NCBI GenBank assembly: GCA_963812135.1
Contig: CAWETU010000001.1
Coordinates: forward strand, 384,001-448,000
Direction: 5' to 3'
Source of the DNA: Vulcanimicrobiota bacterium
GTDB lineage: Bacteria > Vulcanimicrobiota > Vulcanimicrobiia > Eremiobacterales > Eremiobacteraceae
Length of the DNA stretch: 64,000 nt
The notes beneath the pieces are model-generated. The model had not been told where the DNA came from, did not search any database, and saw only the letters and a list, made by a program, of their open reading frames with translations. The position numbers were made by a program, and so were the translations under genes. Below are positions 27,530 to 45,045 of this stretch, piece after piece (the stretch's first letter is position 1; every line of letters begins with the position of its first letter).

Positions 27530-27568
27530 AGGTCACGCGCCAGGAGTCCGGCGAACGCGGCGCCCGAC

Positions 27569-28276: not shown

Positions 28277-28294
28277 CCAACCCAAGCGGCTCAC

Positions 28295-29392: not shown

Positions 29393-29403
29393 GCGGTCCA
29401 TAG

Positions 29404-29432
29404 TTTACAAATGTCCCGCTCCGGCCTATAAT
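29404..29432 (+). promoter_or_regulatory. Sigma70-type promoter for phoU
   Basis: TTTACA (29404-29409), 17 bp spacer, TATAAT (29427-29432). Confidence 0.75.
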
Positions 29433-29473
29433 GCAGGGGTACCTTTTTTCATCCCGAGAGGAGCCGGGTTTTT

Positions 29474-30208
29474 TTGGGTCGCGAAAACTTCCATCGAATC
29501 CTAGACGAAACGCAGCAGGACACGCTGCGTCTCGGCAGTCTTGTCGAAGACGCAACCGCGAAGGCGGTCGATGCGCTGACGCGCTCGGACGTCAAGCTCG
29601 CCGATGAGATCCTCGAAGCCGACGACATCGTCGACGATCTCTGCGTGCGCATCGAGACCAATTGTCTCAACCTGCTCGCGTTGCAGCAGCCAATGGCCTC
29701 CGACCTGCGGACCATCGCGGCGATGCTCGACATCATCATCGACCTCGAGCGCATCGGCGATCACGCGTGCGACATCGCGCAGATCACGAAGAACCTCGCC
29801 ACCGAACCGCAGCTCAAGCCGTTCATCGACATCCCGTTGATGGCCACCGCGGCGCGCGAAATGTTGCGCGAGTCGCTCGACGCGTTCGCGCAGCACAACG
29901 CCGATATCGCGCACAAAGTGCCGGCCAAAGACGACGAGGTCGACCGGCTCTATCGCGCGGTGTTCAAAGAGCTGATCGAGTTCATGGCGAAGGATCCGCG
30001 GGCCATCAGTCGCGGCAGCAACCTGATCCTCGTGGCGCTGTATCTCGAACGCATCGCCGACCACGCGACCAACATCTGCGAGCGGGTCGTGTACATGGTC
30101 GAAGGCGTGCCGAAGCACCTCAAGCGCTCGGTCGTCGAGATCAACCAGGCGATCGCTCACTCGGACAGCCTGAGCGGACGCACCGTCGGGGACACCGCGG
30201 CTTCGTAA
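29474..30208 (+). CDS. phoU: Phosphate signalling complex protein PhoU
   Basis: QQPMASDLR, DLERIGDH, DDEVD, LERIADHATNICE; TTG start after AGAGGAG. Confidence 0.96.
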   Translation: MGRENFHRILDETQQDTLRLGSLVEDATAKAVDALTRSDVKLADEILEADDIVDDLCVRIETNCLNLLALQQPMASDLRTIAAMLDIIIDLERIGDHACDIAQITKNLATEPQLKPFIDIPLMATAAREMLRESLDAFAQHNADIAHKVPAKDDEVDRLYRAVFKELIEFMAKDPRAISRGSNLILVALYLERIADHATNICERVVYMVEGVPKHLKRSVVEINQAIAHSDSLSGRTVGDTAAS

Positions 30209-30255
30209 GAGCCAATTCCGGTACACGTTGGATAAATCGGGTCGTTCCGAGGCGC

Positions 30256-30303
30256 CTTAACCCGCGCTTAAGGCTGTCTTAACATCGTCTTCAAGCCCCT
30301 AAG
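30256..30303 (+). promoter_or_regulatory. Pho box array upstream of pstS
   Basis: CTTAA at 30256, 30267, 30278 and CTTCA at 30289 (11-bp period); CCTAA at 30299. Confidence 0.8.
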
Positions 30304-30375
30304 GTACGGTCGTAGTGGTGCATTTTTTCACTAACTGCCGCGCGATTTTTCGCGCGTAGGAGCGCTCGAAAACCA

Positions 30376-31410
30376 GTGAAGAATCTGACTCTCACAGCGA
30401 TCATTTCGGCCGGCCTCGTCGTCGGCATCGCCCTCCCTGGTGTCGCGCTTGCCGACACGCAGTTCCTCGGCGCTGGTTCCACGTTTGATGCGCCGTTCTT
30501 CTCGCGCGCGTTCTATAAATACAGCCAAGACCACACCGGCGTTACGGTGAACTATGCGAGCATCGGCTCTGGAGGCGGTATCTCGCAGTTCACAGCCAAG
30601 ACCGTCGATTTCGGCGCCTCTGACGTGCCACTGACCAAGACGGAGCTTTCGGCGGCGACCGACGCCAACGGCGCAGTCGTCCAATTGCCTGTGACGTTGG
30701 GCGGAGTATGCATATCGTACAACGTGCCGGGCACGCCCAAGCATATCAAGATGACGCCCGCAGTGCTCGCGAACATAGCCCTAGGCCACGTGACGAATTG
30801 GAACGATCCGTCGATCGCCGCGGTCAACCCAGGCGTAAAGTTCCCGAATCTCGCGATTCTTTGGGTACATCGCGCCGATGCCAGCGGCACGTCGTACATC
30901 TTCACCGACTACATGTCGAAGATTAATCCCGAGTGGAAGACAAAAGTTGGAGTGGCTAAGTCAGTCAACTGGCCCGTCGGTGTCGGGGCCAAGGGTAACG
31001 AAGGCGTCGCCGGGCAACTGAGCAACTCTCCAGGCTCTGTTGGCTATATCGAGCTGGCCTACGCGCTGCAGAACGACATCGCGTATGCGGCCCTGCAGAA
31101 CAAGGCCGGCGCATACGTTCTACCTTCGATCGACTCGGTCCGCGCTGCCGCCGCTCAGAAGCCGGCGGTCAATCCGAACGATTTCTCGATCGTCGACCTG
31201 GATGGCAAAGACAGCTATCCGATTTCAGGATACTCCTGGATTATGGTATGGAAGAACCAGCCCGATCCGGCACGCGGCAAGCAGCTCACGGAGATGCTCA
31301 AGTGGCTTGTCACGGGCGGACAGCAATTAGCCACCGCTGTGAATTACGTCGATCTACCCGAGAACGTCCAAAGGGAGGCACTTAACGCCCTCGGATCGAT
31401 CCATTCCTGA
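30376..31410 (+). CDS. pstS: Phosphate ABC transporter substrate-binding protein
   Basis: GAGSTF, YASIGSGGG, DFGASD, HRADASGTS, GAKGNEGV, YPISGYSW. Confidence 0.97.
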   Translation: MKNLTLTAIISAGLVVGIALPGVALADTQFLGAGSTFDAPFFSRAFYKYSQDHTGVTVNYASIGSGGGISQFTAKTVDFGASDVPLTKTELSAATDANGAVVQLPVTLGGVCISYNVPGTPKHIKMTPAVLANIALGHVTNWNDPSIAAVNPGVKFPNLAILWVHRADASGTSYIFTDYMSKINPEWKTKVGVAKSVNWPVGVGAKGNEGVAGQLSNSPGSVGYIELAYALQNDIAYAALQNKAGAYVLPSIDSVRAAAAQKPAVNPNDFSIVDLDGKDSYPISGYSWIMVWKNQPDPARGKQLTEMLKWLVTGGQQLATAVNYVDLPENVQREALNALGSIHS

Positions 31411-31465
31411 CGCTGTGCAGATCATTAACAATCGTCAATAGGTCACCAACGAGGTCGAAGAGGCG

Positions 31466-32512
31466 GTGATGCGCCAGGCGACAAAGCCTGACCCCGTACC
31501 GCCTCAGCCCTTTTCAGCAGCGAAGACGGGGTTCATGTCGCAAGACGGCGTCGAACTGGTTGGTGCGTCTCCGGACGTGGCCGCGCGACGAGCCCGTTCG
31601 CACGGCTCGCCGTTCGGCGACCGACTGTTCATGCTGGTCCTCCACGGCGCTGCTTGGCTTGTCATCGCGATCATCTTCGCGGTGTTCGTGGTGCTCTTAC
31701 AAAAATCGCTTCCGGCGATTCACCAGATAGGCCTGAAGGCGTTTACGACGCTTTGGGATCCTAACGGATCCCACTACGGCGTACTGACATTCATCTACGG
31801 CACCGTCGTGACATCGGCTGTCGCACTGTTGGTCGCCGGACCTATCGGAATCGGTGCGGCCTTGTTCCTGGCCGAGCTTGCGCCGCGAAGACTTGCGACG
31901 CCGGTCGCCATGCTGATAGAGCTGCTGGCGGCCGTTCCAAGCGTCGTCTACGGGTTGTGGGGATTGTTCGCGCTCACGCCCGCGATTCGGCTCTTCATGG
32001 GACCTGCGCTGCAGAAAGCGTTCGGTTTTTTGCCGCTTTTCCAAGGACCTATTTATGGCGTCGGTTTCCTTGCCGGCGGTCTGATCCTGGCAATCATGGC
32101 GGTGCCGACGGTCGCCGCGATATCCCGCGACGTGTTTGAAGCCGTGCCCAACGACCAGCGCGAGGGCATGCTGGCGTTGGGGGCGACTAAGTGGGAGATG
32201 CTCACCCAAGCCGTATTGCCGTACTCGAGCTCCGGCGTCATCGGCGCACTCGTCCTCGGTCTGGGCCGTGCGCTCGGTGAAGCGATGGCAGTAGTCATGG
32301 TCATCGGCAACAAGCCGCAGATTGTCGCATCGCTATTCGCGCCAGGCTATACGATGGCCAGCGTGCTCGCCAATGAATTCTCCGAAGCGACCGGCAAGGT
32401 ATATATCTCCATGCTTATCGAGATCGGCCTACTTCTATTCGTGGTGAGCCTCATCGTCAACGTTCTCGCGCGCTTGCTGGTGTGGAACGCGAGCGGTCGG
32501 GGTCGCCGCTGA
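31466..32512 (+). CDS. pstC: Phosphate ABC transporter permease PstC
   Basis: ELLAAVPSVVYGLWG, ALGATKWE, LGRALGEAMAV; start could be 31469 or 31535. Confidence 0.96.
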   Translation: MMRQATKPDPVPPQPFSAAKTGFMSQDGVELVGASPDVAARRARSHGSPFGDRLFMLVLHGAAWLVIAIIFAVFVVLLQKSLPAIHQIGLKAFTTLWDPNGSHYGVLTFIYGTVVTSAVALLVAGPIGIGAALFLAELAPRRLATPVAMLIELLAAVPSVVYGLWGLFALTPAIRLFMGPALQKAFGFLPLFQGPIYGVGFLAGGLILAIMAVPTVAAISRDVFEAVPNDQREGMLALGATKWEMLTQAVLPYSSSGVIGALVLGLGRALGEAMAVVMVIGNKPQIVASLFAPGYTMASVLANEFSEATGKVYISMLIEIGLLLFVVSLIVNVLARLLVWNASGRGRR

Positions 32513-33363
32513 TGATCAATCTCAAGTCGATTGCCGTCCGCAAGGTATGGAGCGGTTTCATGATTGCTATCAGCGCGCTGTGCGCGCTGCTGTGCGGCGC
32601 GGTGCTTGTGACCGTTGTGATCTACGTCATCGGAAGAGGCTATAAGGCGCTCAACTGGGACTTCTTCACGAAACTGCCGTTGCCGGTGGGCATGACGGGC
32701 GGCGGCGTCGCCAACGCGATCGTCGGATCACTTGAAATTATAGCTATGGCATCTCTCGTCTCAGTGCCCATCGGCGTAATGGCCGGCATCTATCTTGCGC
32801 TCTTCGGCAGGGGCCGACTCGCGGCGTCGGTACGCTTCTACAGCGACGTGCTCACGGGCATGCCATCGATCGCCGTCGGTGTTTTCGCCTACTCGCTGAT
32901 CGTCATACCGAGCGGGCATTTCTCCGCGCACTCGGCCGCGGTGGCCCTGGCGGTTATCATGTTGCCAATCATCGTGCGCACGACCGAGGAAGCGGTCCGG
33001 CTTGTGCCCGGCGTGATCCGCGAGGGCGCCTTAGCGCTCGGGATTCCCGCGTGGAAGGCGACGCTTTTGGTAACTGTTCCAGTTGCACGCGCCGGCATCG
33101 TCACGGGTGTACTTCTCGCGGTGGCGCGTGTCGCGGGCGAATCCGCGCCGCTGCTATTTACCGCGTTCGGCAGTCAGTATTGGCCACGGGGTCTGGCTTC
33201 GCCGACCGCAGCGCTGCCGCTCATCATCTTCCAATACGCGATCTCTCCATACCACGACTGGCAGCAGATCGCGTGGGGCTGTGCGCTCGTGCTCGTAGCG
33301 CTGGTGTTCGCCCTGAATCTAATCGCCCGGTTCGCCTTCTCAGGGCGTGTGTCGGCGAATTGA
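32512..33363 (+). CDS. pstA: Phosphate ABC transporter permease PstA
   Basis: [32 protein letters not shown]. Confidence 0.96.
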
Positions 33364-33379
33364 GAATGAAAAGGTGGAA

Positions 33380-34189
33380 ATGGCGACGACAATGACGATG
33401 TCCGGGACTGAGATCGCGACGAAGCTTGAGGTCAAGAACCTGAGCGCCTATTACGGCAAACACCTCGCCGTAAGCGGGGTCAACATGTATTTTGAACCTG
33501 GCGCCATCACAGCGTTGATCGGACCGTCTGGCTGCGGCAAGTCGACGCTGCTACGTTGCCTCAACCGCATGCACGAAGTGATTCCCAACGCGCGCGTCGA
33601 GGGCGAGGTGCTGCTGGACGGAAAGAATCTCTACGAGCCAGGCGTGGACCCCACGGACACGCGCCGACGCATCGGCATGGTGTTCCAACGCCCGAACCCG
33701 TTTCCGACGATGAACATCGTTGACAATGTGCTTGCCGGAGTACGTCTGGCGGGCAGGCCGCCCGGAGACGCCACGCTCGAGGATATCGCCGAGAAAAGCT
33801 TGCGCCGCGCGGCGCTCTGGGATGAGGTCAAAGACAAGCTCACCAAGGCGGGCACGTCTCTGTCAGGTGGACAACAGCAGCGGCTGTGCATCGCGCGCGC
33901 GCTGGCAGTGGACCCAGAAGTTCTGCTGATGGATGAGCCCGCCTCGGCGCTCGATCCGATCTCGACCGTGAAGATCGAAGAGCTCATGCGCGAGCTGCGG
34001 GGGGCCTATACGATCGTCATCGTGACCCACAACATGCAGCAGGCGGCGCGCTGTTCGGACTTCACCGGTTTCATGCTGGCCGGCGAAGCCGCGACTGGCG
34101 AATTGGTGGAATTCGACTCGACTTCAAAGATGTTCACCACGCCCAAAGAAAAGCGAACAGAAGATTACATCACTGGGCGCTTCGGTTAA
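33380..34189 (+). CDS. pstB: Phosphate ABC transporter ATP-binding protein
   Basis: [47 protein letters not shown]. Confidence 0.97.
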
Positions 34190-34213
34190 TACAGGCATAA
34201 TCCGGACTTAATC
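34185..34213 (+). promoter_or_regulatory. Probable Pho box upstream of the TonB-dependent receptor
   Basis: GTTAAT 34185, CATAAT 34196, CTTAAT 34207 at 11-bp spacing, resembling the pstS array. Confidence 0.6.
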
Positions 34214-34335
34214 CCGCCCGCCTAGCATCGGAGCTAGGACGGAGACCGCCCGCGTCCCCTCTCGCGTTGCCGCGGACCATTCATGTAGGCCGGCAACGAC
34301 GCGTTCGCTACGTAACCGCCGTCCGGAAAGAGCCG

Positions 34336-37131
34336 ATGTTGTTGAAACGGATTTCTATTGCCGCGTGCGCGCTTGCCGCGGCCTTTTTGTTTCTCGCGCC
34401 GTCGATCGCATCAGCGGACGGATTCACCGTCAAGGGCAAAGTGGTCGACGCGGCCACCGGCCTGCCGTTGGTCGGCGTGAAGCTCACGACCGTCGGCCCG
34501 ACCGTCACTTCGGCGACGTCCAACAGCGCCGGACGCTTCGAGTTCGATAACCTCGCGAGCGGCACGTACAGCTTGCAGATGGGGCTTGCGGGCTACGACA
34601 ACACGTTGTCGGAAGAATTCGCCGTCGGAACAGGCGTCTCGTTGCCGCTCACGCTTGCGATGCAGCGCACGACGCAGAGCTCGCAGATCCGCACGCTCGG
34701 CCGCACCACCGTCACGGCGGCGGCGTCGCTCCAAAAAGCGACCGTCATCTACAAGCAAGTGTCCGGCAATACGTTGCAACGCCAGGGCGTCACGCGCACC
34801 GGCGACGCCGTTCGCGCGCTGGGAGGCGTCGACAACACGTCAAGCGATTCGGCGAGCTTCGGCGACGACGTGCATCTGGCTATCCGCGGCATCGGCGATC
34901 TCGAGACCGTCTCGCTCATCGATGGTCACCCGGTCGCGCTCGGCCTCTCGGGCGGCCTCAACTACGAGATCAGTCCCTCCTTCGCGCTTCGCGCGGTCAG
35001 CGTGGTCTATGGCGCGGGCGGCGGCGACCTCTACGGCGTCGACGCGATCGGCGGCGTGGTCGACATGCAGACGCTCGATCCGACGCGCACGCCGCAGTAC
35101 GTGTTCACCCAAGGATGGGGCACCTTCGACAAGCTGACGAGCTCTCTGACGGGCACGGGTACTCTCGGCGGCGATCGCTGGGGATACGCGTTCGCGCTCG
35201 GTACGCAAGGCATCAACGGGCCGATCAAAAATACCGTGTTTTTCCAACCGGCCGCCGCGTTCGATCCATCCGCCACCGCACCAAACGTCGTCGCGGCCGA
35301 CCAATATCAGGTCAATTCGAACATCGTCAACCGCTCGATGCTGTACAAGCTGCGCTACGGCCTCGGCACCAACGCGCATCTCACCGCAGTCGCGTTGTCG
35401 AGCTACTACTGGGACAACAAGACCGGCAACGGCGACGGCGACTTCCTGCCGATGAACACCGCGCAAGCGATCGGCGCCCAGCGCCTCGCGGGCTACACGC
35501 CGGCCGGCAACGCGCCACCGTTCAACGCGCTCAACCCGCCGGATTGCCCGGCCGGCACGTTCGTCGGCTCGGGAACCGGCGGAAACGCATACGGCTACGG
35601 ACTCGACGGCGTGACGCCCGACGGCGGCACGACGTGCGTGACGCCACAGCAATGGGCCAATCTCAACTCGGGCTGGCAAGGTGCGGGACCTGCGTGGCAA
35701 GGGTTCACCAATCAGGACTATCAGGTGAAGTTCGACGCCACGTTCGGGCCTGGTACGCTGAACGTCAACGGCTTCCAGGATCTCTACGCGCATGTGTACG
35801 ATCGCACCAATGAGCTGCCGTTCTTGCTGGTGCCACCGGCGACGCCGCTCGGTCCGGGCTGCAATCCGAGTTGCACACTGGCGTCCAATCCGTTCTGGTA
35901 TAACGAGGCGATGAACAACGCCGGCGTCATCGGCACCTATAACATCGTCGGGCAGCAGAACGAATTCGGCTTCGGCGGCTACTACGACAACACGCGCAGC
36001 AAGTTCTCGAACGTCGGCGTTCCGGCGCCAAGTCCAGGAGCGTACGAGACCAGCGCGTTCTTTCGCGATTCATGGCACCCGACCAATTCGCCGCTCACAA
36101 CCTACGTGAGTGCGTACTTCAAGCACTCGACCGTGACGAACACGTCGTTCGTCGATCCACGCATCGCGTTCGTCGCGAACAAGCCCAACGATGTGTATCG
36201 CGCCGCCTTCGGCTACGTCAGCACGCAACCAACGCTCAGCGATGTCTTCTCGCCGTTCTCCCCGTCAGCACCAGGTTCGCTGGCAGGCAACGTGCGCTGC
36301 GGCACGCTGAACTCGGTCGGCAGCGGCGGCAACCCGGGCGTCGGGCCCGAGCGCGCGAGCGATACCGAATTCAGTTGGGGCCATAGTTTCGGCGGGGACT
36401 CGACCCTCCAGCTGTCGTTGTACTCCGAGCCGATCTACAATCAGCTCTACACGCAGACGATTCCCGTGATGAACTTCCCGTCGAGCTTCTTCGGTCCAAA
36501 CGGCTATGCGACCGACCTCAACTCGTACACGGGCATCTACACCGCGAACTGCGGCGGCACGGCAGCGCAAGCACTGCAGTTCCTCGGCGTCGACGGCGTC
36601 GTCAACATCGGCTCCGGACAAGCCGAAGGCATCGACCTCCAGGGCCGCCAGCGGATAACCCGGCAGTTCTTCGTCGACTATGGCTACGCGACGAACTCCA
36701 GCATGCCGCTACAAGTGCCGGCGAGCATCCTGCAAGGCAACTTGACGCTCGTGCCAGGCTCACAGTTGCCGGGGATCCCGCTGCACAAGGTCAACTTCGC
36801 GTTCGACTACACGTTCGGCAAGGGTCTCGAAGCGCGCAGCGAGACGTACTTCGTGTCCTTCAACAATCCGAAGAACCTACCGGCATACAACTACACGAAC
36901 CTCATCCTGTCGGCGAACACCGGACAGCGCGGCGTGTTCACAGCGATCATCAACAACTTATTCCAGCAGAACGCGTTCTCGCAGGGCCTGATCGGCAATG
37001 GGTATCCGCACGCGCTCAACCAATATGCGTCGCCGTCGGACTACACGCCGCTGATCGGGGCCGGGGCGACGGAAGAGTTCGGCCTCACGTCACGCACCCT
37101 CGAGTTCATCTACAGCTACAAACTTCACTGA
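34336..37131 (+). CDS. TonB-dependent outer-membrane receptor with N-terminal carboxypeptidase-regulatory-like domain
   Basis: Signal peptide; VKGKVVDAATGLPL; plug motifs IRGIG, LIDGHPV and DAIGGVVD; C-terminal NNLF...RTLEFIYSYKL beta strand. Confidence 0.88.
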   Translation: MLLKRISIAACALAAAFLFLAPSIASADGFTVKGKVVDAATGLPLVGVKLTTVGPTVTSATSNSAGRFEFDNLASGTYSLQMGLAGYDNTLSEEFAVGTGVSLPLTLAMQRTTQSSQIRTLGRTTVTAAASLQKATVIYKQVSGNTLQRQGVTRTGDAVRALGGVDNTSSDSASFGDDVHLAIRGIGDLETVSLIDGHPVALGLSGGLNYEISPSFALRAVSVVYGAGGGDLYGVDAIGGVVDMQTLDPTRTPQYVFTQGWGTFDKLTSSLTGTGTLGGDRWGYAFALGTQGINGPIKNTVFFQPAAAFDPSATAPNVVAADQYQVNSNIVNRSMLYKLRYGLGTNAHLTAVALSSYYWDNKTGNGDGDFLPMNTAQAIGAQRLAGYTPAGNAPPFNALNPPDCPAGTFVGSGTGGNAYGYGLDGVTPDGGTTCVTPQQWANLNSGWQGAGPAWQGFTNQDYQVKFDATFGPGTLNVNGFQDLYAHVYDRTNELPFLLVPPATPLGPGCNPSCTLASNPFWYNEAMNNAGVIGTYNIVGQQNEFGFGGYYDNTRSKFSNVGVPAPSPGAYETSAFFRDSWHPTNSPLTTYVSAYFKHSTVTNTSFVDPRIAFVANKPNDVYRAAFGYVSTQPTLSDVFSPFSPSAPGSLAGNVRCGTLNSVGSGGNPGVGPERASDTEFSWGHSFGGDSTLQLSLYSEPIYNQLYTQTIPVMNFPSSFFGPNGYATDLNSYTGIYTANCGGTAAQALQFLGVDGVVNIGSGQAEGIDLQGRQRITRQFFVDYGYATNSSMPLQVPASILQGNLTLVPGSQLPGIPLHKVNFAFDYTFGKGLEARSETYFVSFNNPKNLPAYNYTNLILSANTGQRGVFTAIINNLFQQNAFSQGLIGNGYPHALNQYASPSDYTPLIGAGATEEFGLTSRTLEFIYSYKLH

Positions 37132-37148
37132 GACTTCGTGTCACGACG

Positions 37149-37224
37149 GCGCCGGTGGTTGCGACCCACCGGCGCGCCCCGCCGCCGCAGCCGGATATCC
37201 CCCCGGCGCGGCGGACCTTTTTTT
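37149..37224 (+). terminator. Tandem hairpins, the second an intrinsic-terminator-like stem with T7 tract
   Basis: GCGCCGGTGG/CCACCGGCGC (37149-37175); CCGCCGCAGCCGG/CCGGCGCGGCGG followed by TTTTTTT (37182-37224). Confidence 0.65.
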
Positions 37225-37256
37225 CCGCGCTCGCTTTGAAGCGAGAGGGAGTTCTC

Positions 37257-39659
37257 ATGCATCGGACGTGCGCCGCGATCTCAAGCCTCCTCGCGACCGC
37301 CATCGCGGTCGTCGCGGCAAGCACCGCCGATGCGGCGACGCTGCCCGACGGGCGCTCCGTGACGCCGGCTGGATTCACGACGCCGGTCGAGGGCTTCGCG
37401 TCCTCGGAAGCGCTCTCACCCGACGGCGCGTACCTCGCGGTCTTGTCGCAAGATGGCGGCGCGATCGATATCATCGTCGTCGGCGAGCACTCGCAGCTCG
37501 TGCAGCGTTTGGCCGTGCCGTGGGCGAGCGCGATGACATGGACGACGGACGGGCTCTATGTGACGCGCGGCTATAGCGGAAGCATTGCACGATTCAGCTA
37601 CGATCCGAAAGCCGACGTTGAATCCGTTGACCTCAAAGGGCGCCGATCTGCAAGTCGGCGGCCTGCTCAACGGGATCGCTGAGGACCCGGCGACGCATCG
37701 CATTCTGGTCGCAAGGACAGCGGCGCACGAAGTCGCCGTGCTGGACGATCAGACCGGCGCCGTCACCACTCGGCTCGCGGCGAGCGGCCAACCGTTTCGC
37801 GTCGGGTTTGCCGGCGGCAGCGTGCTGGCGACGCTCTACAACTCGGATCACGTGGACGCGTGGCCTGCAGGCGCGACGAGCCCGACCCACATCGCCACGG
37901 GACCGCATCCCACCGCGCTGCTGATCGACGGCACGCGCGCCTTCGTCGCGAACGCCGACGGCCACGACGTCAGCATGATCGATATGAACTTACGACGTCT
38001 GTCGCGCCGCTTCGACCTCGGCATGACGCGCGACCAACCGCCGGGGCAAACGCCATCGGGGATGGCGCTCTCGGCCGATCGCAAGCGCCTGTTCGTCGCC
38101 GAATCGGGCTTCAACGACGTCGCGGTCGTGGACATGGACAGCGGCAAAGTGCTCGGACGCATCCCGACGGCATGGTATCCGATGGATGTCATCTTCGTGG
38201 CGGGCTCGACGATCGACGACGATCCGCGGATCAAGCCGCAGCTGTTCATCGTGAGCGCGCAAGGTCTGGGCTCGCAACCGAATCCGGGCTCCGAATGGGA
38301 TGGCGTCTACACCGGCCTGATCCAACATCTCGTGGTCGAGCCGGCGCGCTTCGAGCAATGGTCCGCGACCGTCGCGCGCAACGACCGCCTCAACGCCGCG
38401 CCGGCGACGGCGGGCGCAGCCATGCCGCCGATCAAGCATTTCATCTTCATCGTCCGCGAGAACAAGCACTTCGATGAGTTGTTCGGCGATGTTCCCGCGG
38501 CCAACTCGGATCCATTGCTCTGCCTGTACGGGCGCAAGTACACGCCTAACGCGCACGCACTCGCCGATCGCTACACCCTGTTCGACAACTTCATGGGCAA
38601 CGGCGAGAAGAGCGACTTCGGCCATGCGTGGACCACGGAAGGCGTCGCGAACGACTATCTCGAGCGCAACGGCCATACACCTGACGACGCCGCGACGAAG
38701 GACGATGCCCGCGTGGCCGGTTCGATATGGCCAGTCTACCTCTTCGGCGAAGACGCAGTCCCCGTTGCGACGATGGATTTCGATTGGTTCAAGAACCTCA
38801 TCGCGCTGGCGCATGGTCCGCGAGTCAACGTGAGCGCGGTTTTCGGTCCTCGCGGCGAGCTCATCGACGAGCTGCGCCGGCATAACGTGAGTTTCCGCGT
38901 CTATGGCGAGCAGATGACCATGCTGTCGAGCGGCGCGATCGCGCCAGGTCTGGCCGCGCACGCCGCGCAGGACTATCCCGGCGCGCATATCGATTTCGAC
39001 ATCCTCGACACCGCGCGCGCGAAACTGTTCCTCGCCGACGTCCAAAAGAACGGACTCGCGCAATACTCGTATCTCACGCTGCCGACCGATCACACCGCCG
39101 GCTTCGATCCGGGCTTCTACACACCGGCGTCGTACGTCGCGAGCAACGATGTCGCGCTCGGCGAAATCGTCGCCGGGCTCTCGAAGCGGCCGGAATGGCG
39201 CGGCACGCTGATCTTCGTGACGACGGATGACCCGCAGGGCACGGGCGACCATGTCGATTCCCACCGCATGCCGGCGCTGCTCATCGGGCCATACGCGCGC
39301 CACGGGCACATCGACCACACGCGATACAGCTTGCCATCGGTGTTGCGGACGGTCGAGCTCGCGTTCGGATTGCAGCCGCTGAACATCTACGACGCGATGG
39401 CGACCCCGCTGCTGGACGCCCTCGGCGCCCAACCGGCCGTGGCGCGTTACACGCGCTTCCTTCTAATATCGCGATGACGCGCAACCCCGGTAAGCGCAAG
39501 GGCACGTCGTTCATGCTCGACGGCCCGGACTCGGCCCGCATCCCCGATGAGGAATGGGCCTCGATCAAAGGAAGCTCGTCGCTCGCCGACCATGTCGCGT
39601 ATCTCAGCAAGCTGTCAGCGACGTTGGCCGCAGATCCGGACGCCCTCACGCGCTTCTAA
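37257..39659 (+). CDS. Secreted YVTN/YncE beta-propeller plus phosphoesterase/alkaline-phosphatase-superfamily protein (about 800 aa, two frameshifts)
   Basis: Signal peptide and LPDGRSVTPAG; propeller repeats; IKHFIFIVRENKHFD, TPNAHALA, DNFM, LPTDHT, DDPQGTGDHVDSHR; frame breaks near 37605-37640 and 39453. Confidence 0.8.
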
Positions 39660-39694
39660 GAGGGGGCGCCCCGCGCGTCCGCTAACGCCATAGC

Positions 39695-40513
39695 GTGTCT
39701 CTCGCTGCAGAACGCTTTTTGGTGGCGGCGGCACGTTTGTGCGCCGTCCTGGTCGTCGCGATCCAGCCAGTCGTCATCATCATCTTGGTCATCGCGACCG
39801 TGGGCGCATTGATCCATGGCGTCACGATTTCATCCAACGGATTCATCTGGCTGACGACGGCGACGGTGGGGCTGGCGCTCGTCGGGGCGACACTCGGCAC
39901 GGCGCTCGGCGTCGGCGGCTCGCTGTACGCCGAAGAGATCGCGCCCGCGGCGGCGCGGCAGATCATCAAGGGGCTGGTAGGCGGCCTGCACGCGCTGCCC
40001 GCCGTCGGTTTCGGCGTCGCGGCCGCCGGCGTGCTGCTCGTGACGCCGGTCGTGCCCAATACCGCGCTGACGTTCGCGATCGCTTCGATCGTCATCACGG
40101 CGATGATCGCCTCGGTCGTGTTCGTGCAGACCCGTCGCGCCCTTGCGGCCCTGCCGCCTGAGCTGCGCGAAGTGGCCGCCGCAGCGGGCGCAGATCCCGT
40201 GAACGCGGCGGTGCGCGCGGTCTTACCGGCGTTGCAGCGCAACGTCGCGGGCATCTGGTGGTCTGCGCTCGCCCTTGCGTTGGGCGAGGCGACCGCGCTG
40301 CAGATCATCTTCAGCGCGGCATCCATGAAAGCAGCGGCTGTCGGCATGCCGCCGGTCGCGGGAACGCTCGCGAGCACCTTGCTGCAGGTCGGCGCGTCTG
40401 AACGAGGCGCGGCGCTGCTCGGCACGGCGCCGGTGGCGTTGCTGCTCGTCGCAATGGCGATCGCGGCCGTCCTTCTCGGCCGCCGCGCGGTTGGGCACGT
40501 GCAATGGCCGTGA
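39695..40513 (+). CDS. Divergent PstC-like ABC permease
   Basis: YAEEIAP, LHALPAVGFG, EAA loop LREVAAAAGA, ALALGEATAL (GRALGE lacking the Arg). Confidence 0.8.
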   Translation: MSLAAERFLVAAARLCAVLVVAIQPVVIIILVIATVGALIHGVTISSNGFIWLTTATVGLALVGATLGTALGVGGSLYAEEIAPAAARQIIKGLVGGLHALPAVGFGVAAAGVLLVTPVVPNTALTFAIASIVITAMIASVVFVQTRRALAALPPELREVAAAAGADPVNAAVRAVLPALQRNVAGIWWSALALALGEATALQIIFSAASMKAAAVGMPPVAGTLASTLLQVGASERGAALLGTAPVALLLVAMAIAAVLLGRRAVGHVQWP

Positions 40514-41349
40514 CCGCGCTACGCGCCACGATCCCACCCGCGCGTGTGGCGCAACCGCTCACCGCGATCGTCCTCGCGACGTGCGCCGCGATCCTGTGCT
40601 TCTCGATCGTGGCGATCCTCGGCTGGCTTGCGCTCACGGGGATTCCGAACAGCCTGCGCGTGCTCAACCCGCATTATCCAGGTTCGGTGTTGGCGCCGGT
40701 CGCGGCGACGATCTACGTCACGGTGCTCGCGTTGCCACCGACGATCATCGTCGGCGTGTTCGCGGCGATCGCGGCGACCGAGGTGCGCATCTTCGGCATC
40801 GCGGCGGCCGGCATGCGCAGCGCGCTCGCCTTGCTGGGCAGCCTGCCGACCATCGTCGTCGCGTTCGCAGCGGTGATCGGCGTGAACGCGCTGGGCTGGC
40901 ACCCGAGCCTGACGGGAGCGGCCTTTTTGCTTGCGGCGATCAACATGCCGCTCATGACGGCTTTGGCGGTCGACGCGCTCAGTCGCAAGTCGATGGACGT
41001 GCGTGAGGCCGCCAGCGCGCTTGGCGCATCGCCGATGTTCATCGTGCGCCGCGTGCTCTTGCCGAAGTCCGGCGCGCGGCTCGGCAGCGCGATCATCATC
41101 GTGGCCACGCAGCTGATCGGTGCGGCTGCGGCCGTCGCCATCGTGGCCGGCGCGCTCGTGCCGCGCAGCAGCGGCGCTGCGCCCGTCGGAGCTTGGCCGC
41201 TCGCGGTGCACGTGTGGATCCGGGGCGGCGATATCGGCGGCTACGGCGCCACGGCCGCCGCCGCGCTGTTCCTCGGCTTGATGATCTGGTTCTTGCAAGG
41301 CGTGGCTCGGTTGCGCGCAAGCCCAGATGCCCGTCGGGAGGTGCGATGA
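40504..41349 (+). CDS. Divergent PstA-like ABC permease
   Basis: LGSLPTIVV, NMPLM, VREAASALGAS, RVLLP; ARxxGE replaced by TQLIGA; start could be GTG 40510. Confidence 0.78.
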   Translation: MAVTALRATIPPARVAQPLTAIVLATCAAILCFSIVAILGWLALTGIPNSLRVLNPHYPGSVLAPVAATIYVTVLALPPTIIVGVFAAIAATEVRIFGIAAAGMRSALALLGSLPTIVVAFAAVIGVNALGWHPSLTGAAFLLAAINMPLMTALAVDALSRKSMDVREAASALGASPMFIVRRVLLPKSGARLGSAIIIVATQLIGAAAAVAIVAGALVPRSSGAAPVGAWPLAVHVWIRGGDIGGYGATAAAALFLGLMIWFLQGVARLRASPDARREVR

Positions 41350-42122
41350 GCCCGGAACGAACGCAGCTCGAGACCAAGATCGAAGTCAACAAAGTCGACG
41401 TGTGGTATGGTGGCGTGCAAGCGCTGCGCAACGCGACGTTCGATGTCGGCTCGAAGACGACGACGGCTTTGATCGGCGCCGGCGGTTCCGGCAAGACGAC
41501 GCTGCTGCGCGCCTTGAACCGCATGCACGATCTCAACCCGGATGCGCGCGTGCAGGGCAGCATCAAGATCGACGGCGCGGAGATCCTCGGGCCGGGCGTG
41601 GACAGCGCGCGGCTGCGGCGCAATGTCGGCATGGTGTTCGCACGTCCGACCATGCTCCCGACGAGCATCGCTGACAACGTCCGATTCGGTCTTGCAGCGC
41701 AGGGCGTGCGCGACGAGCGGACGCTGCGCGAGACAAGCGAGCGAGCGCTGCGGCGCGTCTCGCTGTGGGAGCGCCTGAGCGGCAGTCTGGATGCGCCGGC
41801 GGCTTCATTGCCGGAGGACCTGCAGCAGCGGCTGTGCATCGCGCGAGCGCTCGCAGTCGATCCCGATGTGCTTCTGCTCGACGACCCGACCGCCACATTG
41901 GATCCGATCGCCGCGCTGGCCGTCGAGGACGTCATCGCACGCTTGCGCCGCGACCACACCATCATCATCGCCACCAACGACCTGCAACAAGCCGCGCGGC
42001 TCGCGGACATCACGATCTACATGGCAAACGGGGAGATCGTCGAGTCCGGCGACACGCCGCTCCTCTTCAACAAGCCGGCCGACCAGCGCACCGAAGCGTT
42101 CTTGGCGGGTCGCACCGCGTGA
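41346..42122 (+). CDS. PstB-like ABC ATPase with degenerate catalytic motifs
   Basis: PstB-specific [33 protein letters not shown]; Walker A GAGGSGKT intact; VFARP, LPEDL, LLDDP and ATND replace the canonical motifs. Confidence 0.85.
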   Translation: MSPERTQLETKIEVNKVDVWYGGVQALRNATFDVGSKTTTALIGAGGSGKTTLLRALNRMHDLNPDARVQGSIKIDGAEILGPGVDSARLRRNVGMVFARPTMLPTSIADNVRFGLAAQGVRDERTLRETSERALRRVSLWERLSGSLDAPAASLPEDLQQRLCIARALAVDPDVLLLDDPTATLDPIAALAVEDVIARLRRDHTIIIATNDLQQAARLADITIYMANGEIVESGDTPLLFNKPADQRTEAFLAGRTA

Positions 42123-42132
42123 GGTTCAAGCC

Positions 42133-43530
42133 GTGAAAACTGAGGTCAAACCAGAGTCGCGCCTCGGGCCGCTGCGCGAGGACGGCATGCATTACTATGA
42201 CTCTGCGCTCGACGTCGTCGGCTCGACGCCGCTGGTGCGCCTGCATCGCGTCGTGGATGCCCGCTGTCTCGTTTTGGGTAAGGTCGAGTTCTTCAACCCG
42301 GGCGGGTCGGTGAAGGACCGGCCTTCGCTTGCCATGATCAGCGACGCGGAAGAGCGCGGTCTACTGCGCCCCGGCGGCACGATCGTCGAAGCGACCTCCG
42401 GCAATACCGGCACCGGCCTTGCCATGGTGGCCGCCATCAAGGGGTATCGCTGCATTCTCGTGATGCCCGACAAGGTCAGCGAGGAAAAAGTACGTCTGCT
42501 GCGTGCGTACGGCGCTGAGGTCGTCATCACACCGACGAACGTGCCTGCGAGCAGCCCGGAATCCTATTACGGTGTGGCCGCCAAACTCGCGAGCGAAATA
42601 CCGGGGGCCTTCCAGCCGAACCAATTCGCCAACATGCTCAATCCGCGATCCCACGAGGCTTCGACGGGTCCGGAGATCTGGGAAGCGACCGCCGGCAAGA
42701 TCACGCACTTCGTGAGCGGCATCGGGACGGGCGGCACGATCTCGGGCGTGGCGCACTATCTAAAGAAGCAAAATCCCTCGATCGTGGTCGTCGGCGCCGA
42801 TCCGGAAGGGTCGATCTACTCGGGCGATACGGCCAAGTCGTACAAGGTCGAGGGCATCGGCGAAGACTTCTTGCCGGCGACCGTCGACCTCAAGGCCATC
42901 GACCGGATCGAGCGCGTCTCGGATAAGGACTCATTCTTGATGGCGCGCCGCACGTGTCGCGAAGAGGGTCTGCTGGTCGGCGGTTCTTCGGGCACCGCGC
43001 TGGTCGCCGCCGCCCGCATCGCGCGCGAGCTGCCGGCGGACGCGATCGTCGTCGTCCTGCTGCCGGATAACGGCCGCGGCTATCTCTCCAAGATCTTCAA
43101 CGACGAGTGGATGCGCGCCAACGGCTTCTTGGGTGAGCAGGGGCTGGGCGCGACGGTGGGCGACGTGCTGCGCGCCAAAGGCGAACTGCAACTCGTCACA
43201 TTGGCGCCGTCCGATCCCGTCAAGCGCGGCATCGAATTGATGCGCGAGTTCCAGATCTCGCAGATCCCGGTCGTCGATGCCGGCGAGATGGTCGGCAGCA
43301 TCAACGAAGTCGCGGTGATGCAGCTCATCTACGATCGCGCCGACGTGGCGCACCAGCCGGTCAAAGAAGTCATGGCAAAGCCGTTCCCGGTGCTCGAAGA
43401 GCGCGATGAGGTCGAGAAGGCGTACAAAGCGCTATCCCTCGGCCACGGCGCGGTCGTGGTTTCGCGCAAAGGCATCCCGGTCGGCGTCTTGACGAAGATG
43501 GACATCATCTCGTACCTCTCGGCCAACTAA
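42133..43530 (+). CDS. cbs: Cystathionine beta-synthase with C-terminal CBS domains
   Basis: NPGGSVKDR, EATSGNTG, GIGTGGT, VEGIGEDF, YLSKIFNDEWM, CBS pair. Confidence 0.93.
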   Translation: MKTEVKPESRLGPLREDGMHYYDSALDVVGSTPLVRLHRVVDARCLVLGKVEFFNPGGSVKDRPSLAMISDAEERGLLRPGGTIVEATSGNTGTGLAMVAAIKGYRCILVMPDKVSEEKVRLLRAYGAEVVITPTNVPASSPESYYGVAAKLASEIPGAFQPNQFANMLNPRSHEASTGPEIWEATAGKITHFVSGIGTGGTISGVAHYLKKQNPSIVVVGADPEGSIYSGDTAKSYKVEGIGEDFLPATVDLKAIDRIERVSDKDSFLMARRTCREEGLLVGGSSGTALVAAARIARELPADAIVVVLLPDNGRGYLSKIFNDEWMRANGFLGEQGLGATVGDVLRAKGELQLVTLAPSDPVKRGIELMREFQISQIPVVDAGEMVGSINEVAVMQLIYDRADVAHQPVKEVMAKPFPVLEERDEVEKAYKALSLGHGAVVVSRKGIPVGVLTKMDIISYLSAN

Positions 43531-43540
43531 AGGCGGCTCC

Positions 43541-44686
43541 ATGGAGTTCTCGACCAAGGCGATCCACGTCGGCCAGGACGCCGATCCGACGACGGGCGCG
43601 ACCATCGTGCCCATCTACCAGACGACCACCTACACGCAGGCGGCGCCCGGGCAACATAAAGGCTTCGACTATTCCCGGACGATCAATCCGACGCGCGTGG
43701 CTTTGGAGCGCTGCCTCGCGTCGCTCGAGAACGCGTCTTTCGGTCTGTGTTTTTCAAGCGGCATGGCCGCGACGTCGGCGGTGATGAACTTGTTGTCGTC
43801 GGGCGACCACGTTGTGGTCAACGACGACATCTACGGCGGCACGTTCAGGCTGTTCGACAAGGTGTTCACGCGCTACGGCGTGAGCTTCACCTACGTGGAT
43901 GCGACCGATGTGGCGCGCGTCGCGGCGGCGATGAAGCCGTCCACCAAGATGGTCTGGCTGGAGACGCCGACCAATCCGCTGCTGCACCTCGTCGATCTCG
44001 CAGCAGTGGCCGCGCTGTGCGCAGGCCGCGGGATCCACGTTGCGGTCGACAATACGTTTGCCACTCCATATCTGCAGAATCCGCTCGATCTCGGCGCATC
44101 GATCGTGGTGCATTCGACCACCAAATACATCGGCGGTCATTCCGACGCGCTCGGCGGCTTTGCGGCTGTCAACGACCCCAAGCTTCACGAAGTCTTGAAA
44201 TTCCATCAGAACGCGGTCGGGGGCGTTCCCGGACCGTTCGATTGCTTCTTGACGTTGCGCGGCGCAAAAACGCTGGCGATCCGAATGCGCGAACACGATC
44301 GCAACGCGCGTGCGATCGCCGATTTCTTGTCCAAACACGCTGACGTCGACCGCGTCTACTACCCGGGTCTCACGACCCACGCGCAGCACGAGCTCGCGAA
44401 GAAGCAGATGCGTGGTTTCGGCGGCATGGTGTCGTTCACGCTCAAGGGAGCGCCCGATCGGGCGCGCGCGTTCGCGTCGAGCACTAAGCTATTCTCGCTC
44501 GCCGAGAGCTTAGGTGGCGTCGAATCGCTGGTCTGCCACCCGGCGACGATGACCCACGGCTCGATCCCCAAGGAAGTCCGCGAAGCCCGCGGCGTGACCG
44601 ACGGGCTTCTGCGGCTGTCGGTGGGCATCGAAGACATACACGATCTGATCGCCGATCTCGAGCGCGCGTTCAATGCGTCCCGCTAA
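43541..44686 (+). CDS. Cystathionine gamma-lyase/synthase (Cys/Met metabolism PLP enzyme)
   Basis: YSRTINPTR, ETPTNP, DNTFATP, HSTTKYIGGHSD, AESLGGVESL, LRLSVGIE. Confidence 0.93.
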   Translation: MEFSTKAIHVGQDADPTTGATIVPIYQTTTYTQAAPGQHKGFDYSRTINPTRVALERCLASLENASFGLCFSSGMAATSAVMNLLSSGDHVVVNDDIYGGTFRLFDKVFTRYGVSFTYVDATDVARVAAAMKPSTKMVWLETPTNPLLHLVDLAAVAALCAGRGIHVAVDNTFATPYLQNPLDLGASIVVHSTTKYIGGHSDALGGFAAVNDPKLHEVLKFHQNAVGGVPGPFDCFLTLRGAKTLAIRMREHDRNARAIADFLSKHADVDRVYYPGLTTHAQHELAKKQMRGFGGMVSFTLKGAPDRARAFASSTKLFSLAESLGGVESLVCHPATMTHGSIPKEVREARGVTDGLLRLSVGIEDIHDLIADLERAFNASR

Positions 44687-44772
44687 CCCTTGTAGCGACA
44701 GAGGACGGCTCGACCACGCCTAGCGGATGCACGCGTGCGTCGACGAGGTCGGAGCCGTAGATCGCGCTCGCG

Positions 44773-45045
44773 CTAATCCGCGCAGCAGCAAATCCAGCCG
44801 GAATGTTCGATCGGCGGATAGACGATGTGGTACCAATTGTTCGCCGCCTGCCGATAGCCGACACCCGCGCGCTTGATGAGCAGCACCCTGTTCACTTTGT
44901 GTCCAGCCTTCTTAAGGAAGCGGCGTGCGAACGCATCCGGATTGGATTCGAACCTCCGTCGCTCCGCCGACGAGAGTTTGACCTGATAGCGCTCCATGAC
45001 GATGGACCCGGTCAACGCCAATTTCTTCGACGACCTTTTAGCCAT
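44773..45045 (-). CDS. Small basic hypothetical protein, 90 aa, ending WICCCAD
   Basis: Strong GGGAGG RBS upstream of ATG 45045; fills the gap between convergent genes. Confidence 0.7.
   Translation of the reverse strand: MAKRSSKKLALTGSIVMERYQVKLSSAERRRFESNPDAFARRFLKKAGHKVNRVLLIKRAGVGYRQAANNWYHIVYPPIEHSGWICCCAD

Follow-up and report, generated by a model that had tools for sequence, protein, structure and literature searches.

Phosphate sensing through PstSCAB, PhoU and PhoR has been an open problem for decades. The leading idea, which is based on engineered Escherichia coli mutants, is that PhoR reads the conformation of the transporter and not the phosphate flux. The locus described here raises the question of what a second set of pstC-, pstA- and pstB-derived genes does at the end of a complete pho locus when its ATPase lacks the catalytic motifs. 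It lies in a stretch of 64,000 nucleotides (hereafter the window) from a soil-dwelling member of the family Eremiobacteraceae, in the uncultured phylum Eremiobacterota. Our literature searches retrieved no paper treating Eremiobacterota together with pstSCAB, and none that describes a fully degenerate Pst set.

Gene Organization of the Locus

The window contains, at positions 39695-42122, three open and overlapping genes derived from pstC, pstA and pstB, here called pstC', pstA' and pstB' (proteins C', A' and B'), in agreement with the original prediction of three intact genes. The start of pstA' is either ATG 40504 or GTG 40510, and the start of pstB' overlaps the stop of pstA' (ATGA). Among the open reading frames of the window, the set comprises no second gene for a nucleotide-binding domain (NBD). 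The features of the locus are as follows; the four canonical pst genes score above or near their curated family cut-offs.

27569-28276, + strand, phoB-like response regulator gene (context)
28295-29392, + strand, phoR-like histidine kinase gene, product without membrane segment (context)
29474-30208, + strand, phoU, the sole PhoU-family gene found in the genome
30256-30293, + strand, candidate Pho box upstream of pstS, four CTTAA repeats with 11-bp spacing
30376-31410, + strand, canonical pstS
31466-32512, + strand, canonical pstC
32482-33363, + strand, canonical pstA
33347-34189, + strand, canonical pstB
34185-34211, + strand, second candidate Pho box, three repeats with two mismatches, preceding the TonB-dependent-receptor-like gene
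34267-39660, + strand, variable insert between pstB and pstC', with the following two genes
34267-37131, + strand, TonB-dependent-receptor-like gene
37155-37682, 37585-39477 and about 39503-39660, + strand, PF04185 phosphoesterase gene, split over three frames in the window
39695-40513, + strand, pstC', 272 aa, diverged PstC-derived permease with Arg237 replaced by Leu, Glu241 and an EAA-type loop kept
40504-41349, + strand, pstA', 281 aa, diverged PstA-derived permease with Arg220 replaced by Gln and Glu224 by Ala
41346-42122, + strand, pstB', 258 aa, PstB-derived nucleotide-binding protein

PhoR lacks a hydrophobic segment (highest Kyte-Doolittle mean over 19 residues, 1.34) and, as predicted, is apparently soluble. 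The window and all 15 related loci covering that region have the CTTAA element upstream of pstS. No Pho box of its own immediately precedes pstC'A'B', the nearest such element upstream being the candidate at 34185-34211. A scan of positions 27000-45000 for sigma-70 promoters and terminators gave counts at or below those of shuffled sequences, and an Rfam scan of the same region gave one sub-threshold chance match only, with no riboswitch between pstB' and the downstream CBS gene. The set was also predicted to lack a cognate pstS. This is true of the window, but in 3 of 16 related loci (G009, G018 and G012) the set is preceded by a second pstS.

The ATPase Motifs of B' Are Degenerate on Both Faces

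Aligned with the canonical PstB of the window (45% identity), B' shows exactly the four catalytic losses that had been listed from the sequence: the Q-loop Gln (VFQRP to VFARP), the LSGGQ signature (now LPEDL), the Walker B Glu, replaced by Asp (LLMDEP to LLLDDP), and the H-loop His, replaced by Asn (VTHN to ATND). Walker A (GAGGSGKTT), the A-loop aromatic residue, the Walker B Asp and the D-loop Asp are retained, as are the PstB-specific segments. In the coupling groove, the canonical Pro118 is lost and Phe119 is replaced by Leu. On the NCBIfam PstB model (TIGR00972), B' reaches 275.8 bits and stays below the cut-off of 343.2 bits (canonical PstB of the window: 366.4 bits); it matches solved PstB at 7e-61. 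An AF2 model has a mean pLDDT of 91.5 and the normal secondary structure of an NBD.

These losses recur among 65 unique B' sequences. The Q-loop Gln and the second signature Gly are found in none of them, the latter position being Asp or Glu in 60/65; the signature Ser is left in 13, the Walker B Glu in three (Asp in 59) and the H-loop His in a single sequence (Asn in 63). The nucleotide-binding residues are mostly kept (Walker A Lys 58/65, Walker B Asp 65/65, D-loop Asp 64/65), and the A-loop position is Trp in 56/65. Conservation thus extends to the replacements: the Asp, the Asn and, within the former signature, an acidic residue. As the residues that bind nucleotide are conserved, an ATP-dependent activity of some kind may persist. 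An Asp at the Walker B position permits slow hydrolysis in some ABC proteins, and the Q-loop Gln couples the NBD to the membrane domain.

The degeneration of B' extends to the two faces of the ATP site, with Walker B, H-loop and Q-loop affected on one face and the signature on the other. The set therefore differs from ABC proteins with one degenerate site, in which a consensus site remains. Since both faces are affected, a PstB/B' dimer would be left with two impaired composite sites. On this motif geometry, we disfavour the asymmetric heterocomplex that had been offered as one explanation, and the heterodimer of B' with canonical PstB was rejected as a candidate.

The Set Is Maintained by Purifying Selection

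Of the 24 other family genomes, 23 (20 of 21 when three unpublished genomes are left aside) encode an ortholog of B', with 51-87% identity and no internal stops, and C' and A' are open in all 17 loci examined, which represent 10 genera. We calculated dN/dS for 21 pairs among seven genomes of the window's genus. The medians are 0.161 for B', 0.284 for C' and 0.361 for A', against 0.054 for pstB, 0.142 for pstC and 0.127 for pstA in the same genomes, and the bootstrap 97.5% bound lies below 1 in every pair. Such a comparison of orthologs and substitution rates had been put forward with the original prediction, and its outcome, with no stops, the same losses and dN/dS well below 1, favours retained function.

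A functionless duplicate in decay would also lose catalytic motifs, and its permeases could fall far below the family cut-offs, as they do here; C' and A' moreover evolve two to three times faster than their canonical counterparts. We nevertheless consider decay very improbable, given the open frames in all 23 B' orthologs and in the 17 C' and A' loci, the dN/dS values of 0.16-0.36, the conserved replacement residues and the confidently predicted fold of B'. From sequence comparison, a retained function that would need no hydrolysis is well supported.

In the sister family, all 12 PstB genes examined (nine loci) are canonical. In one soil metatranscriptome run, 5% of the sampled words were recovered and short contigs of a relative were obtained, one of which (293 nt) matches positions 40506-40797 with 12 differences. 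As this share is small and DNA may be present in such an RNA library, we do not take the contigs as evidence of transcription.

The Permeases Are Strongly Diverged

The two permeases have moved far from their families. C' has no Pfam match and reaches 22.2 and 23.3 bits on the NCBIfam PstC and PstA models, while A' reaches 25.2 bits on BPD_transp_1 and 45.2 bits on the PstA model. These scores lie far below the cut-offs of 196.45 and 193.45 bits (TIGR02138 and TIGR00974), which the canonical genes of the window exceed (302.5 and 269.1 bits). Profiles built from the orthologs find E. coli PstC as best solved match of C' (9k3s_B, 2.1e-20; PstA 1.5e-14) and E. coli PstA as best solved match of A' (9k3s_A, 1.9e-14; PstC 9e-4). 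The set descends from pstC, pstA and pstB. The EAA-type loops of both permeases have diverged but are kept.

In the membrane domain, phosphate is held by PstA Arg220 and PstC Arg237, as described in PMC12976172. Alignment to the E. coli K-12 proteins places Leu at the Arg237 position of the window's C', with Glu241 kept, and Gln at the Arg220 position of its A', with Glu224 lost. The predicted arginine losses are therefore present in the window. Across the family, Arg237 is retained in 9/17 C' sequences and Arg220 in 5/17 A' sequences, the remaining 12 having Gln, and in two genera (g3 and g4) the equivalents of both pairs, Arg237/Glu241 and Arg220/Glu224, are intact. In the permeases, the proposed concerted loss is thus confined to certain genera and does not extend to the whole family.

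Since the arginines are kept in several genera, and a second pstS lies just upstream in three related loci, the membrane part may still bind or pass phosphate there. The set could accordingly still be a transporter, either with C'A' run by canonical PstB and B' as an accessory or mixed subunit, or with slow hydrolysis by B' that would be enough for uptake of phosphate or a related anion at a low rate. The intact Arg/Glu pairs of g3 and g4, the pstS copies in G009, G018 and G012, the EAA-type loops and the largely preserved Walker A, Walker B Asp and A-loop are all compatible with transport. We judge it unlikely, because four catalytic or closing elements have been lost together in nearly all 65 B' sequences, with the Q-loop Gln missing throughout, and because a PstB/B' dimer would carry two impaired sites. 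In the window's genus the phosphate site itself, as located in PMC12976172, is gone. Finally, B' is damaged most in g4, the genus whose permeases are best preserved; the damage there includes a Walker A Lys to Arg change.

Constant and Variable Neighbours

All loci covering the region share the order phoBRU-pstSCAB-[variable]-C'A'B'-CBS-CGL on the same strand, and the set is always preceded by candidate Pho boxes, which lie in front of pstS and of the accessory genes before pstC'. The variable genes (TonB-dependent receptor, OprD-like porins, phosphoesterase) differ between genera, and in G001 and G011 the set directly follows pstB. A candidate CBS start lies 10 nt past the stop of pstB', and the junction between pstB' and CBS-CGL never contains an insertion, so that this linkage is tighter than that to pstB. 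A functional link to CBS-CGL was considered and rejected: in 4/4 sister-family loci, CBS-CGL has no Pst-like neighbour upstream, and the adjacency thus looks like a family-specific arrangement.

CFTR, an exporter converted to a non-pumping role, offers a model for an ABC importer that would have become a membrane device outside the Pho system, such as a channel, nucleotide-gated or passive, or a structural component working with the outer-membrane and phosphoesterase genes nearby. B' keeps its nucleotide-binding residues without the catalytic ones, the receptor, porin and phosphoesterase genes are at hand, and the set is probably co-transcribed with CBS-CGL, to which it is tightly linked. These neighbours nevertheless vary by genus while the link to phoBRU-pstSCAB is constant, and the latter is direct in G001 and G011. 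The sister-family loci, with CBS-CGL on its own, also argue against such a device, which we therefore hold to be about as improbable as a transporter.

A Possible Regulatory Role in the Pho System

We propose that the product of pstC'A'B' is a membrane complex derived from PstCAB, kept by selection and incapable of an ATP-driven transport cycle. Its most likely role is that of a regulatory pseudo-transporter of the Pho system, a reading that we favour with somewhat less than even confidence. Judging from the gene overlaps and the kept EAA-type loops, C' and A' would still dock B'. With a conserved acidic residue in its former signature, B' would bind ATP without hydrolyzing it and without closing into an ATP-sandwich dimer. 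The complex would then present one fixed conformation and, by analogy with E. coli, hold the soluble PhoR in phosphatase mode via the single PhoU. With its genes at the far end of operons that would be under Pho control, it would be a feedback brake or set-point device and not an importer. The acidic residue may either keep the dimer open or glue it shut, for which the E. coli model predicts opposite Pho outputs. Several observations weaken this reading: the arginines kept in several genera, the second pstS of three related loci, the lack of a Pho box belonging to the set, its closer linkage to CBS-CGL than to pstB, and the faster evolution of C' and A'.

The scaffold or sensor role for PhoU and PhoR is inferred from the locus context, from a Longimicrobiales parallel (see below) and from E. 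coli genetics as reported in PMC5775613. According to that source, the signature mutant PstB Q160K abolishes transport and signals phosphate sufficiency via PhoU/PhoR, PstA R220Q and PstC R237Q/E240Q block transport with signalling kept, and PhoU binds both PstB and PhoR (PMC5775613). A complex prediction of B' with PhoU, run without controls, scored 0.01; it gave no verdict and is counted neither for nor against binding. The more specific version, in which a hard-wired pseudo-transporter shows a frozen conformation to PhoU/PhoR as a built-in brake or set-point and thereby separates sensing from transport, remains tentative.

The binding of PhoU to PstB would also suit a throttle, in which B' competes with PstB for PstCA or PhoU and limits uptake or the availability of PhoU, with C'A' mainly as an anchor. 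The genome has a single PhoU, and B' retains the PstB-specific segments. The altered coupling groove of B', together with the diverged EAA-type loops of C' and A', would point instead to co-adaptation of B' with its own permeases and not with PstCA, and we consider a throttle slightly less probable than either a transporter or a device outside the Pho system.

Degenerate PstB Proteins Outside the Family

A Longimicrobiales genome contains the arrangement phoR-X-pstC-pstA-degenerate pstB-phoU along with a separate tandem-pstB locus. A search of Longimicrobiales relatives found a partly degenerate PstB in pstCAB-phoU in 16 of 31 genomes (query genome included), and four more distant relatives have canonical motifs in the same operon. 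This degradation is independent of that in Eremiobacteraceae. In a FastTree phylogeny of 134 PstB-like proteins, B' falls into a group of 24 rows made up of degenerate sequences only (local support 88). We do not take this grouping as a sign of common origin: long-branch or convergent attraction is likely, and the operon of the Longimicrobiales member has canonical, more distant orthologs. The evidence suggests at least two origins of an ATPase-dead mimic that would serve signalling, one in Eremiobacteraceae and one in Longimicrobiales. It may recur more widely, at least nine further fully degenerate PstB-like representatives being present among the best 150 profile-search matches. Public records name B'-type proteins 'phosphate ABC transporter ATP-binding protein', and with this annotation, phosphate-uptake capacity based on gene counts is overstated in Eremiobacterota and some Gemmatimonadota.

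Comparison With Known Systems

Transporter-derived sensors are known among secondary carriers, namely UhpC, the yeast proteins Snf3/Rgt2, and Ssy1. The concept is alike, in that a paralog of a nutrient transporter gives up transport and reports nutrient status, but these proteins belong to other families and are not ABC importers. Literature searches found no example of a sensor derived from an ABC importer with a dead ATPase.

Heterodimeric ABC exporters (TM287/288, TAP, MRP1, CFTR) have one degenerate nucleotide-binding site, at which ATP is bound stably without hydrolysis. B' shares with them the Walker B Glu to Asp change, the loss of the H-loop His and a non-canonical signature. In the exporters one consensus site drives the cycle, whereas the B' set has no consensus site and is built on a type I importer scaffold. 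It would thus be an ABC importer in which both ATP sites are degenerate.

Tandem PstB1/PstB2 genes that divide the labour between them are described for Enterococcus faecalis (PMC12096839), and in the tandem pstB pair of Longimicrobiales the deviations are complementary, leaving one ATP site intact. Such pairs place two ATPase genes on one permease set with at least one working site, whereas B' has its own permeases and would form two dead sites.

The closest system remains PstSCAB-PhoU-PhoR of E. coli, with the same three protein families and the same type of locus with phoB, phoR and phoU. The locus would be a natural counterpart of the transport-dead E. coli mutants: the substitutions fall on the same residues, the R220 position is Gln in 12/17 A' sequences, so that some genera carry the same Arg-to-Gln change, and the signature of B' is destroyed. 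In E. coli, one complex both transports and signals, whereas here a separate paralog set, ATPase-dead by its motifs, stands beside an intact pump. If this set does signal, sensing could be studied in it cleanly, apart from transport.

Locus Organization

The diverged second pstC, pstA and pstB genes (C', A' and B', 39695-42122) lie in a single same-strand gene array, which also contains the canonical pstSCAB genes and is organized as follows.

27569-44686, same strand throughout: the array, with a phoB-like regulator, phoR and phoU, then canonical pstS, pstC, pstA and pstB in its first part
Between canonical pstB and C', same strand: TonB-dependent-receptor-like gene, then PF04185 phosphoesterase gene
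39695-40513, same strand as the array: C'
40504-41349, same strand as the array: A'
41346-42122, same strand as the array: B'
Array end, downstream of B', same strand: cystathionine beta-synthase (CBS) and cystathionine gamma-lyase (CGL)

C' and A' overlap by 10 (or 4) bases, A' and B' by 4. CBS has a conserved candidate GTG start at 42133, 10 nt past the B' stop, and region 42123-42190 shows codon-like conservation between this GTG and the ATG at 42187 across 10 aligned sequences (the window and nine related loci); CBS probably starts at the GTG rather than at the ATG. The B'-CBS junction never contains an insertion in the related loci compared, and CBS-CGL has no Pst-like neighbor in the sister family (4/4 loci).

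The slot between pstB and C' varies in content (receptor, phosphoesterase, OprD-like or SLH porin, or a second pstS, pstS2) and is empty in genomes G001 and G011. The phosphoesterase gene of the window is spread over three reading frames (37155-37682, 37585-39477 and, at about 39503-39660, a tail of 48 codons); its orthologs in four relatives (G006, G004, G002, G003) are single open reading frames of about 800 aa. The split reflects either two frameshifts (a pseudogene) or assembly indel errors. In G001, a genome from the window's genus, two pieces in different frames make up canonical pstB (locus L038, 13571-14402), directly followed by an intact C'A'B' set; this genome is only 81% complete, and the split may be an assembly error.

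Regulators and Candidate Pho Boxes

PhoU is encoded by a single copy in the genome, and PhoR, originally described as apparently soluble, indeed has no membrane segment. Four CTTAA repeats with 11-bp spacing are located upstream of pstS (30256-30293). A search for the three-repeat pattern yielded five matches in the window against 0.18 expected, and pstS is preceded by a like element in each of the 15 related loci covering the region as well as in the window. Similar elements occur before the receptor gene (34185-34211) and before porin-like genes in G012, G007 and G014. Since elements precede these upstream accessory genes and none was found directly before C' in the window or the related loci searched, transcription of C'A'B' probably occurs at the distal end of Pho-controlled units. 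In other genera, OprD-like or SLH-domain outer-membrane proteins fill the slot (L042, 12865-14154; L045, 15186-17033; L046, 7761-9521), each with CTTAA-repeat elements upstream, which suggests that the family has its own set of envelope genes under Pho control.

Identity and Motif Loss

B' shares 45% identity with the PstB of the window and scores 275.8 bits on the NCBIfam PstB model TIGR00972, under the cut-off of 343.2. Its best solved relative is the PstB of the 2026 PstSCAB structures (7e-61), and its AF2 model is confident (mean pLDDT 91.5). B' descends from PstB. Alignment to the window's PstB reproduces exactly the four catalytic losses of the original prediction (VFQRP to VFARP, LSGGQ to LPEDL, DE to DD and THN to TND), along with the retained Walker A (GAGGSGKTT).

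C' and A' are far more diverged. A Pfam search gave no match for C' and 25.2 bits for A', and both score 22-45 bits on PstC/PstA models. Profiles built from their orthologs find PstC (2.1e-20) and PstA (1.9e-14), respectively, as best solved match, and the EAA-type loop (R-E-x-A-A-x-x-G-A ... P) is kept in C' and, in a weaker form, in A'. The three proteins are members of known families, yet lack the catalytic and substrate-site features that define those families.

Residues in 65 unique B' sequences; the 90 canonical PstB sequences compared carry the consensus residue at each catalytic position (90/90)
Q-loop Gln: 0/65
Signature Ser: 13/65
First signature Gly: 0/65 (freely variable position)
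Second signature Gly: 0/65 (Asp or Glu in 60/65)
Walker B Glu: 3/65 (Asp in 59/65)
H-loop His: 1/65 (Asn in 63/65)
Walker A Lys: 58/65 (Arg in the remaining 7, including one genus)
Walker B Asp: 65/65
D-loop Asp: 64/65
A-loop aromatic (Trp): 56/65

This pattern of loss and retention suggests that B' would bind nucleotide without hydrolyzing it, closure of the ATP sandwich being disabled or replaced. Some conserved B' residues differ from the canonical PstB of the same family, for example Leu for Phe119, adjoining the Q-loop, and Ala for Val226, adjoining the H-loop. A place in asymmetric heterocomplexes had also been proposed; since both faces of the site are degenerate in B', a mixed pair with canonical PstB would contain no working ATP site, which argues against this arrangement.

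Conservation and Selection

Judged by the names that close homologs carry, the organism belongs to Candidatus Eremiobacterota, and the host organisms are known solely from metagenome assemblies. In a search of 40 relatives, B' orthologs (51-87% identity, no internal stops) were found in 23 of the 24 other genomes of the family, spanning 10 genera, or in 20/21 without three unpublished genomes (G010, G013, G016); the sole miss was G021 (89% complete). A public protein collection contains 44 clusters of the B' clade at 291-538 bits, followed by a gap, with canonical PstB at 270 bits or less. Two hydrophobic open reading frames precede B' in 17/17 loci (the window and 16 wider loci, all from published genomes), mostly with overlaps of 4 or 10 bases, and all contigs that span the region share the gene order phoBRU-pstSCAB-[variable genes]-C'A'B'-CBS-CGL.

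Median dN/dS (Nei-Gojobori; 21 pairs among the seven genomes available for the genus, and 15 pairs among six of these genomes in the case of canonical genes) is 0.161 for B' versus 0.054 for pstB, 0.284 for C' versus 0.142 for pstC and 0.361 for A' versus 0.127 for pstA, ratios that are rough since dS (0.8-1.0) is near saturation. The bootstrap 97.5% bound reaches at most 0.97 over all pairs. The check proposed with the original prediction thus came out in its favor, with widespread stop-free orthologs, shared substitutions and bounds all below 1. A decaying duplicate is contradicted by the stop-free B' orthologs in 23/24 genomes, the conserved gene order and the dN/dS of 0.161-0.361. C'A'B' is very probably a maintained, non-pumping Pst derivative.

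The Phosphate Site of the Permeases

In the membrane domain, phosphate is coordinated by PstC R237 and PstA R220, braced by glutamates (2026 cryo-EM, PMC12976172). Aligned to E. coli K-12 PstC and PstA, C' of the window has Leu at R237 and keeps E241, and A' has Gln at R220 and has also lost E224. The same R220Q substitution in E. coli PstA blocks transport but not signaling (PMC5775613). The arginine loss holds for the window but not family-wide: among 17 sequences each, position 237 is Arg in nine, Leu in all seven genomes of the window's genus and Ala in G011, and position 220 is Gln in 12 and Arg in five (genera g3 and g4). A pstS2 lies upstream of the set in three related loci (G009, G018, G012), and genus g4, despite having the most intact permeases and a pstS2, has the B' with the heaviest damage (Walker A Lys to Arg). 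Together, these patterns indicate that the ATPase was lost first, family-wide, with the phosphate site eroding later in some lineages. Such late, lineage-limited erosion somewhat disfavors a pure scaffold role, and in some genera the membrane part may still bind phosphate.

Degenerate PstB Beyond the Family

All 12 PstB genes examined in the sister family (nine loci from genomes with two copies) are canonical in their motifs, so the degeneracy arose after the family split. The best B' match in those genomes is an orphan, fully canonical pstB paralog (H-loop of VTHS type) directly after phoB-phoR, with phoU elsewhere, seen in five of six top-hit loci and in G032 (L025, L028, L029, L030, L032, L080). 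Its position may be a trace of an earlier link between the regulators and a PstB copy.

A B' clade profile searched against 1.84 billion representatives found one clade representative (420 bits) before a drop to 300 bits. Among the best 150 matches, a list enriched by the query and not a prevalence estimate, 63 depart from the consensus in one or more motifs (a single fragment among them) and nine, the clade's own representative excluded, retain none of the four catalytic elements. Of these nine, P0159 of the Longimicrobiales genome G041 belongs to an operon ordered phoR, a gene for an unknown 353-aa protein, pstC-like, pstA-like, degenerate pstB and phoU. Partly degenerate PstB in pstC-pstA-pstB-phoU was found in 16 of 31 genomes (G041 and 30 relatives searched), typically with LSAGQ and with Ser, Cys, Tyr, Arg or Asn in place of the H-loop His; in four relatives at greater distance, the same operon has canonical motifs. 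Judged from these motifs, this is an independent, graded ATPase erosion in a regulator-linked Pst copy, and no other comparative evidence favors a regulatory reading of C'A'B' as strongly.

The 353-aa open reading frame (L050, 4330-5391) occupies the place between phoR and the pstC-like gene where pstS is expected; Pfam and NCBIfam scans gave no match. At a separate G041 locus (L056, 728-2319), two adjacent PstB genes show complementary deviations, one having canonical Walker A, Q-loop, Walker B and H-loop without LSGGQ, the other LSGGQ with the other motifs missing, the arrangement that a heterodimeric motor with a single functional ATP site would be expected to show.

Proposed Function and Known Systems

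In E. coli, PhoU contacts both PstB and PhoR. The PstB signature-motif mutant Q160K, predicted to have an open dimer in an inward-facing transporter, is transport-dead and signals phosphate sufficiency, and E179Q, predicted to be closed, signals starvation (PMC5775613). On this model, C'A'B'2 would mimic a frozen conformation and engage PhoU and the soluble PhoR. An open B' dimer would favor the phosphatase mode of PhoR, and the complex, if made along with Pho-induced genes, would then act as a feedback brake or set-point. Alternatively, closure could be mimicked if the acidic residue conserved at the former signature bridged across to the Walker A Lys on the opposite side, and the output would then have the reverse sign. 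We tentatively regard C'A'B' as a regulatory pseudo-transporter, a reading that we rate just short of an even chance.

ABC proteins with one degenerate site and transporter-derived sensors are both known precedents. So are tandem PstB paralogs, which, according to PMC12096839, no earlier study had compared. In the literature searched, we found no description of an ABC importer set that is complete and conserved while being degenerate at both ATP sites. Whereas a single site is affected in the ABC proteins with one degenerate site, both ATP sites are degenerate in C'A'B'.
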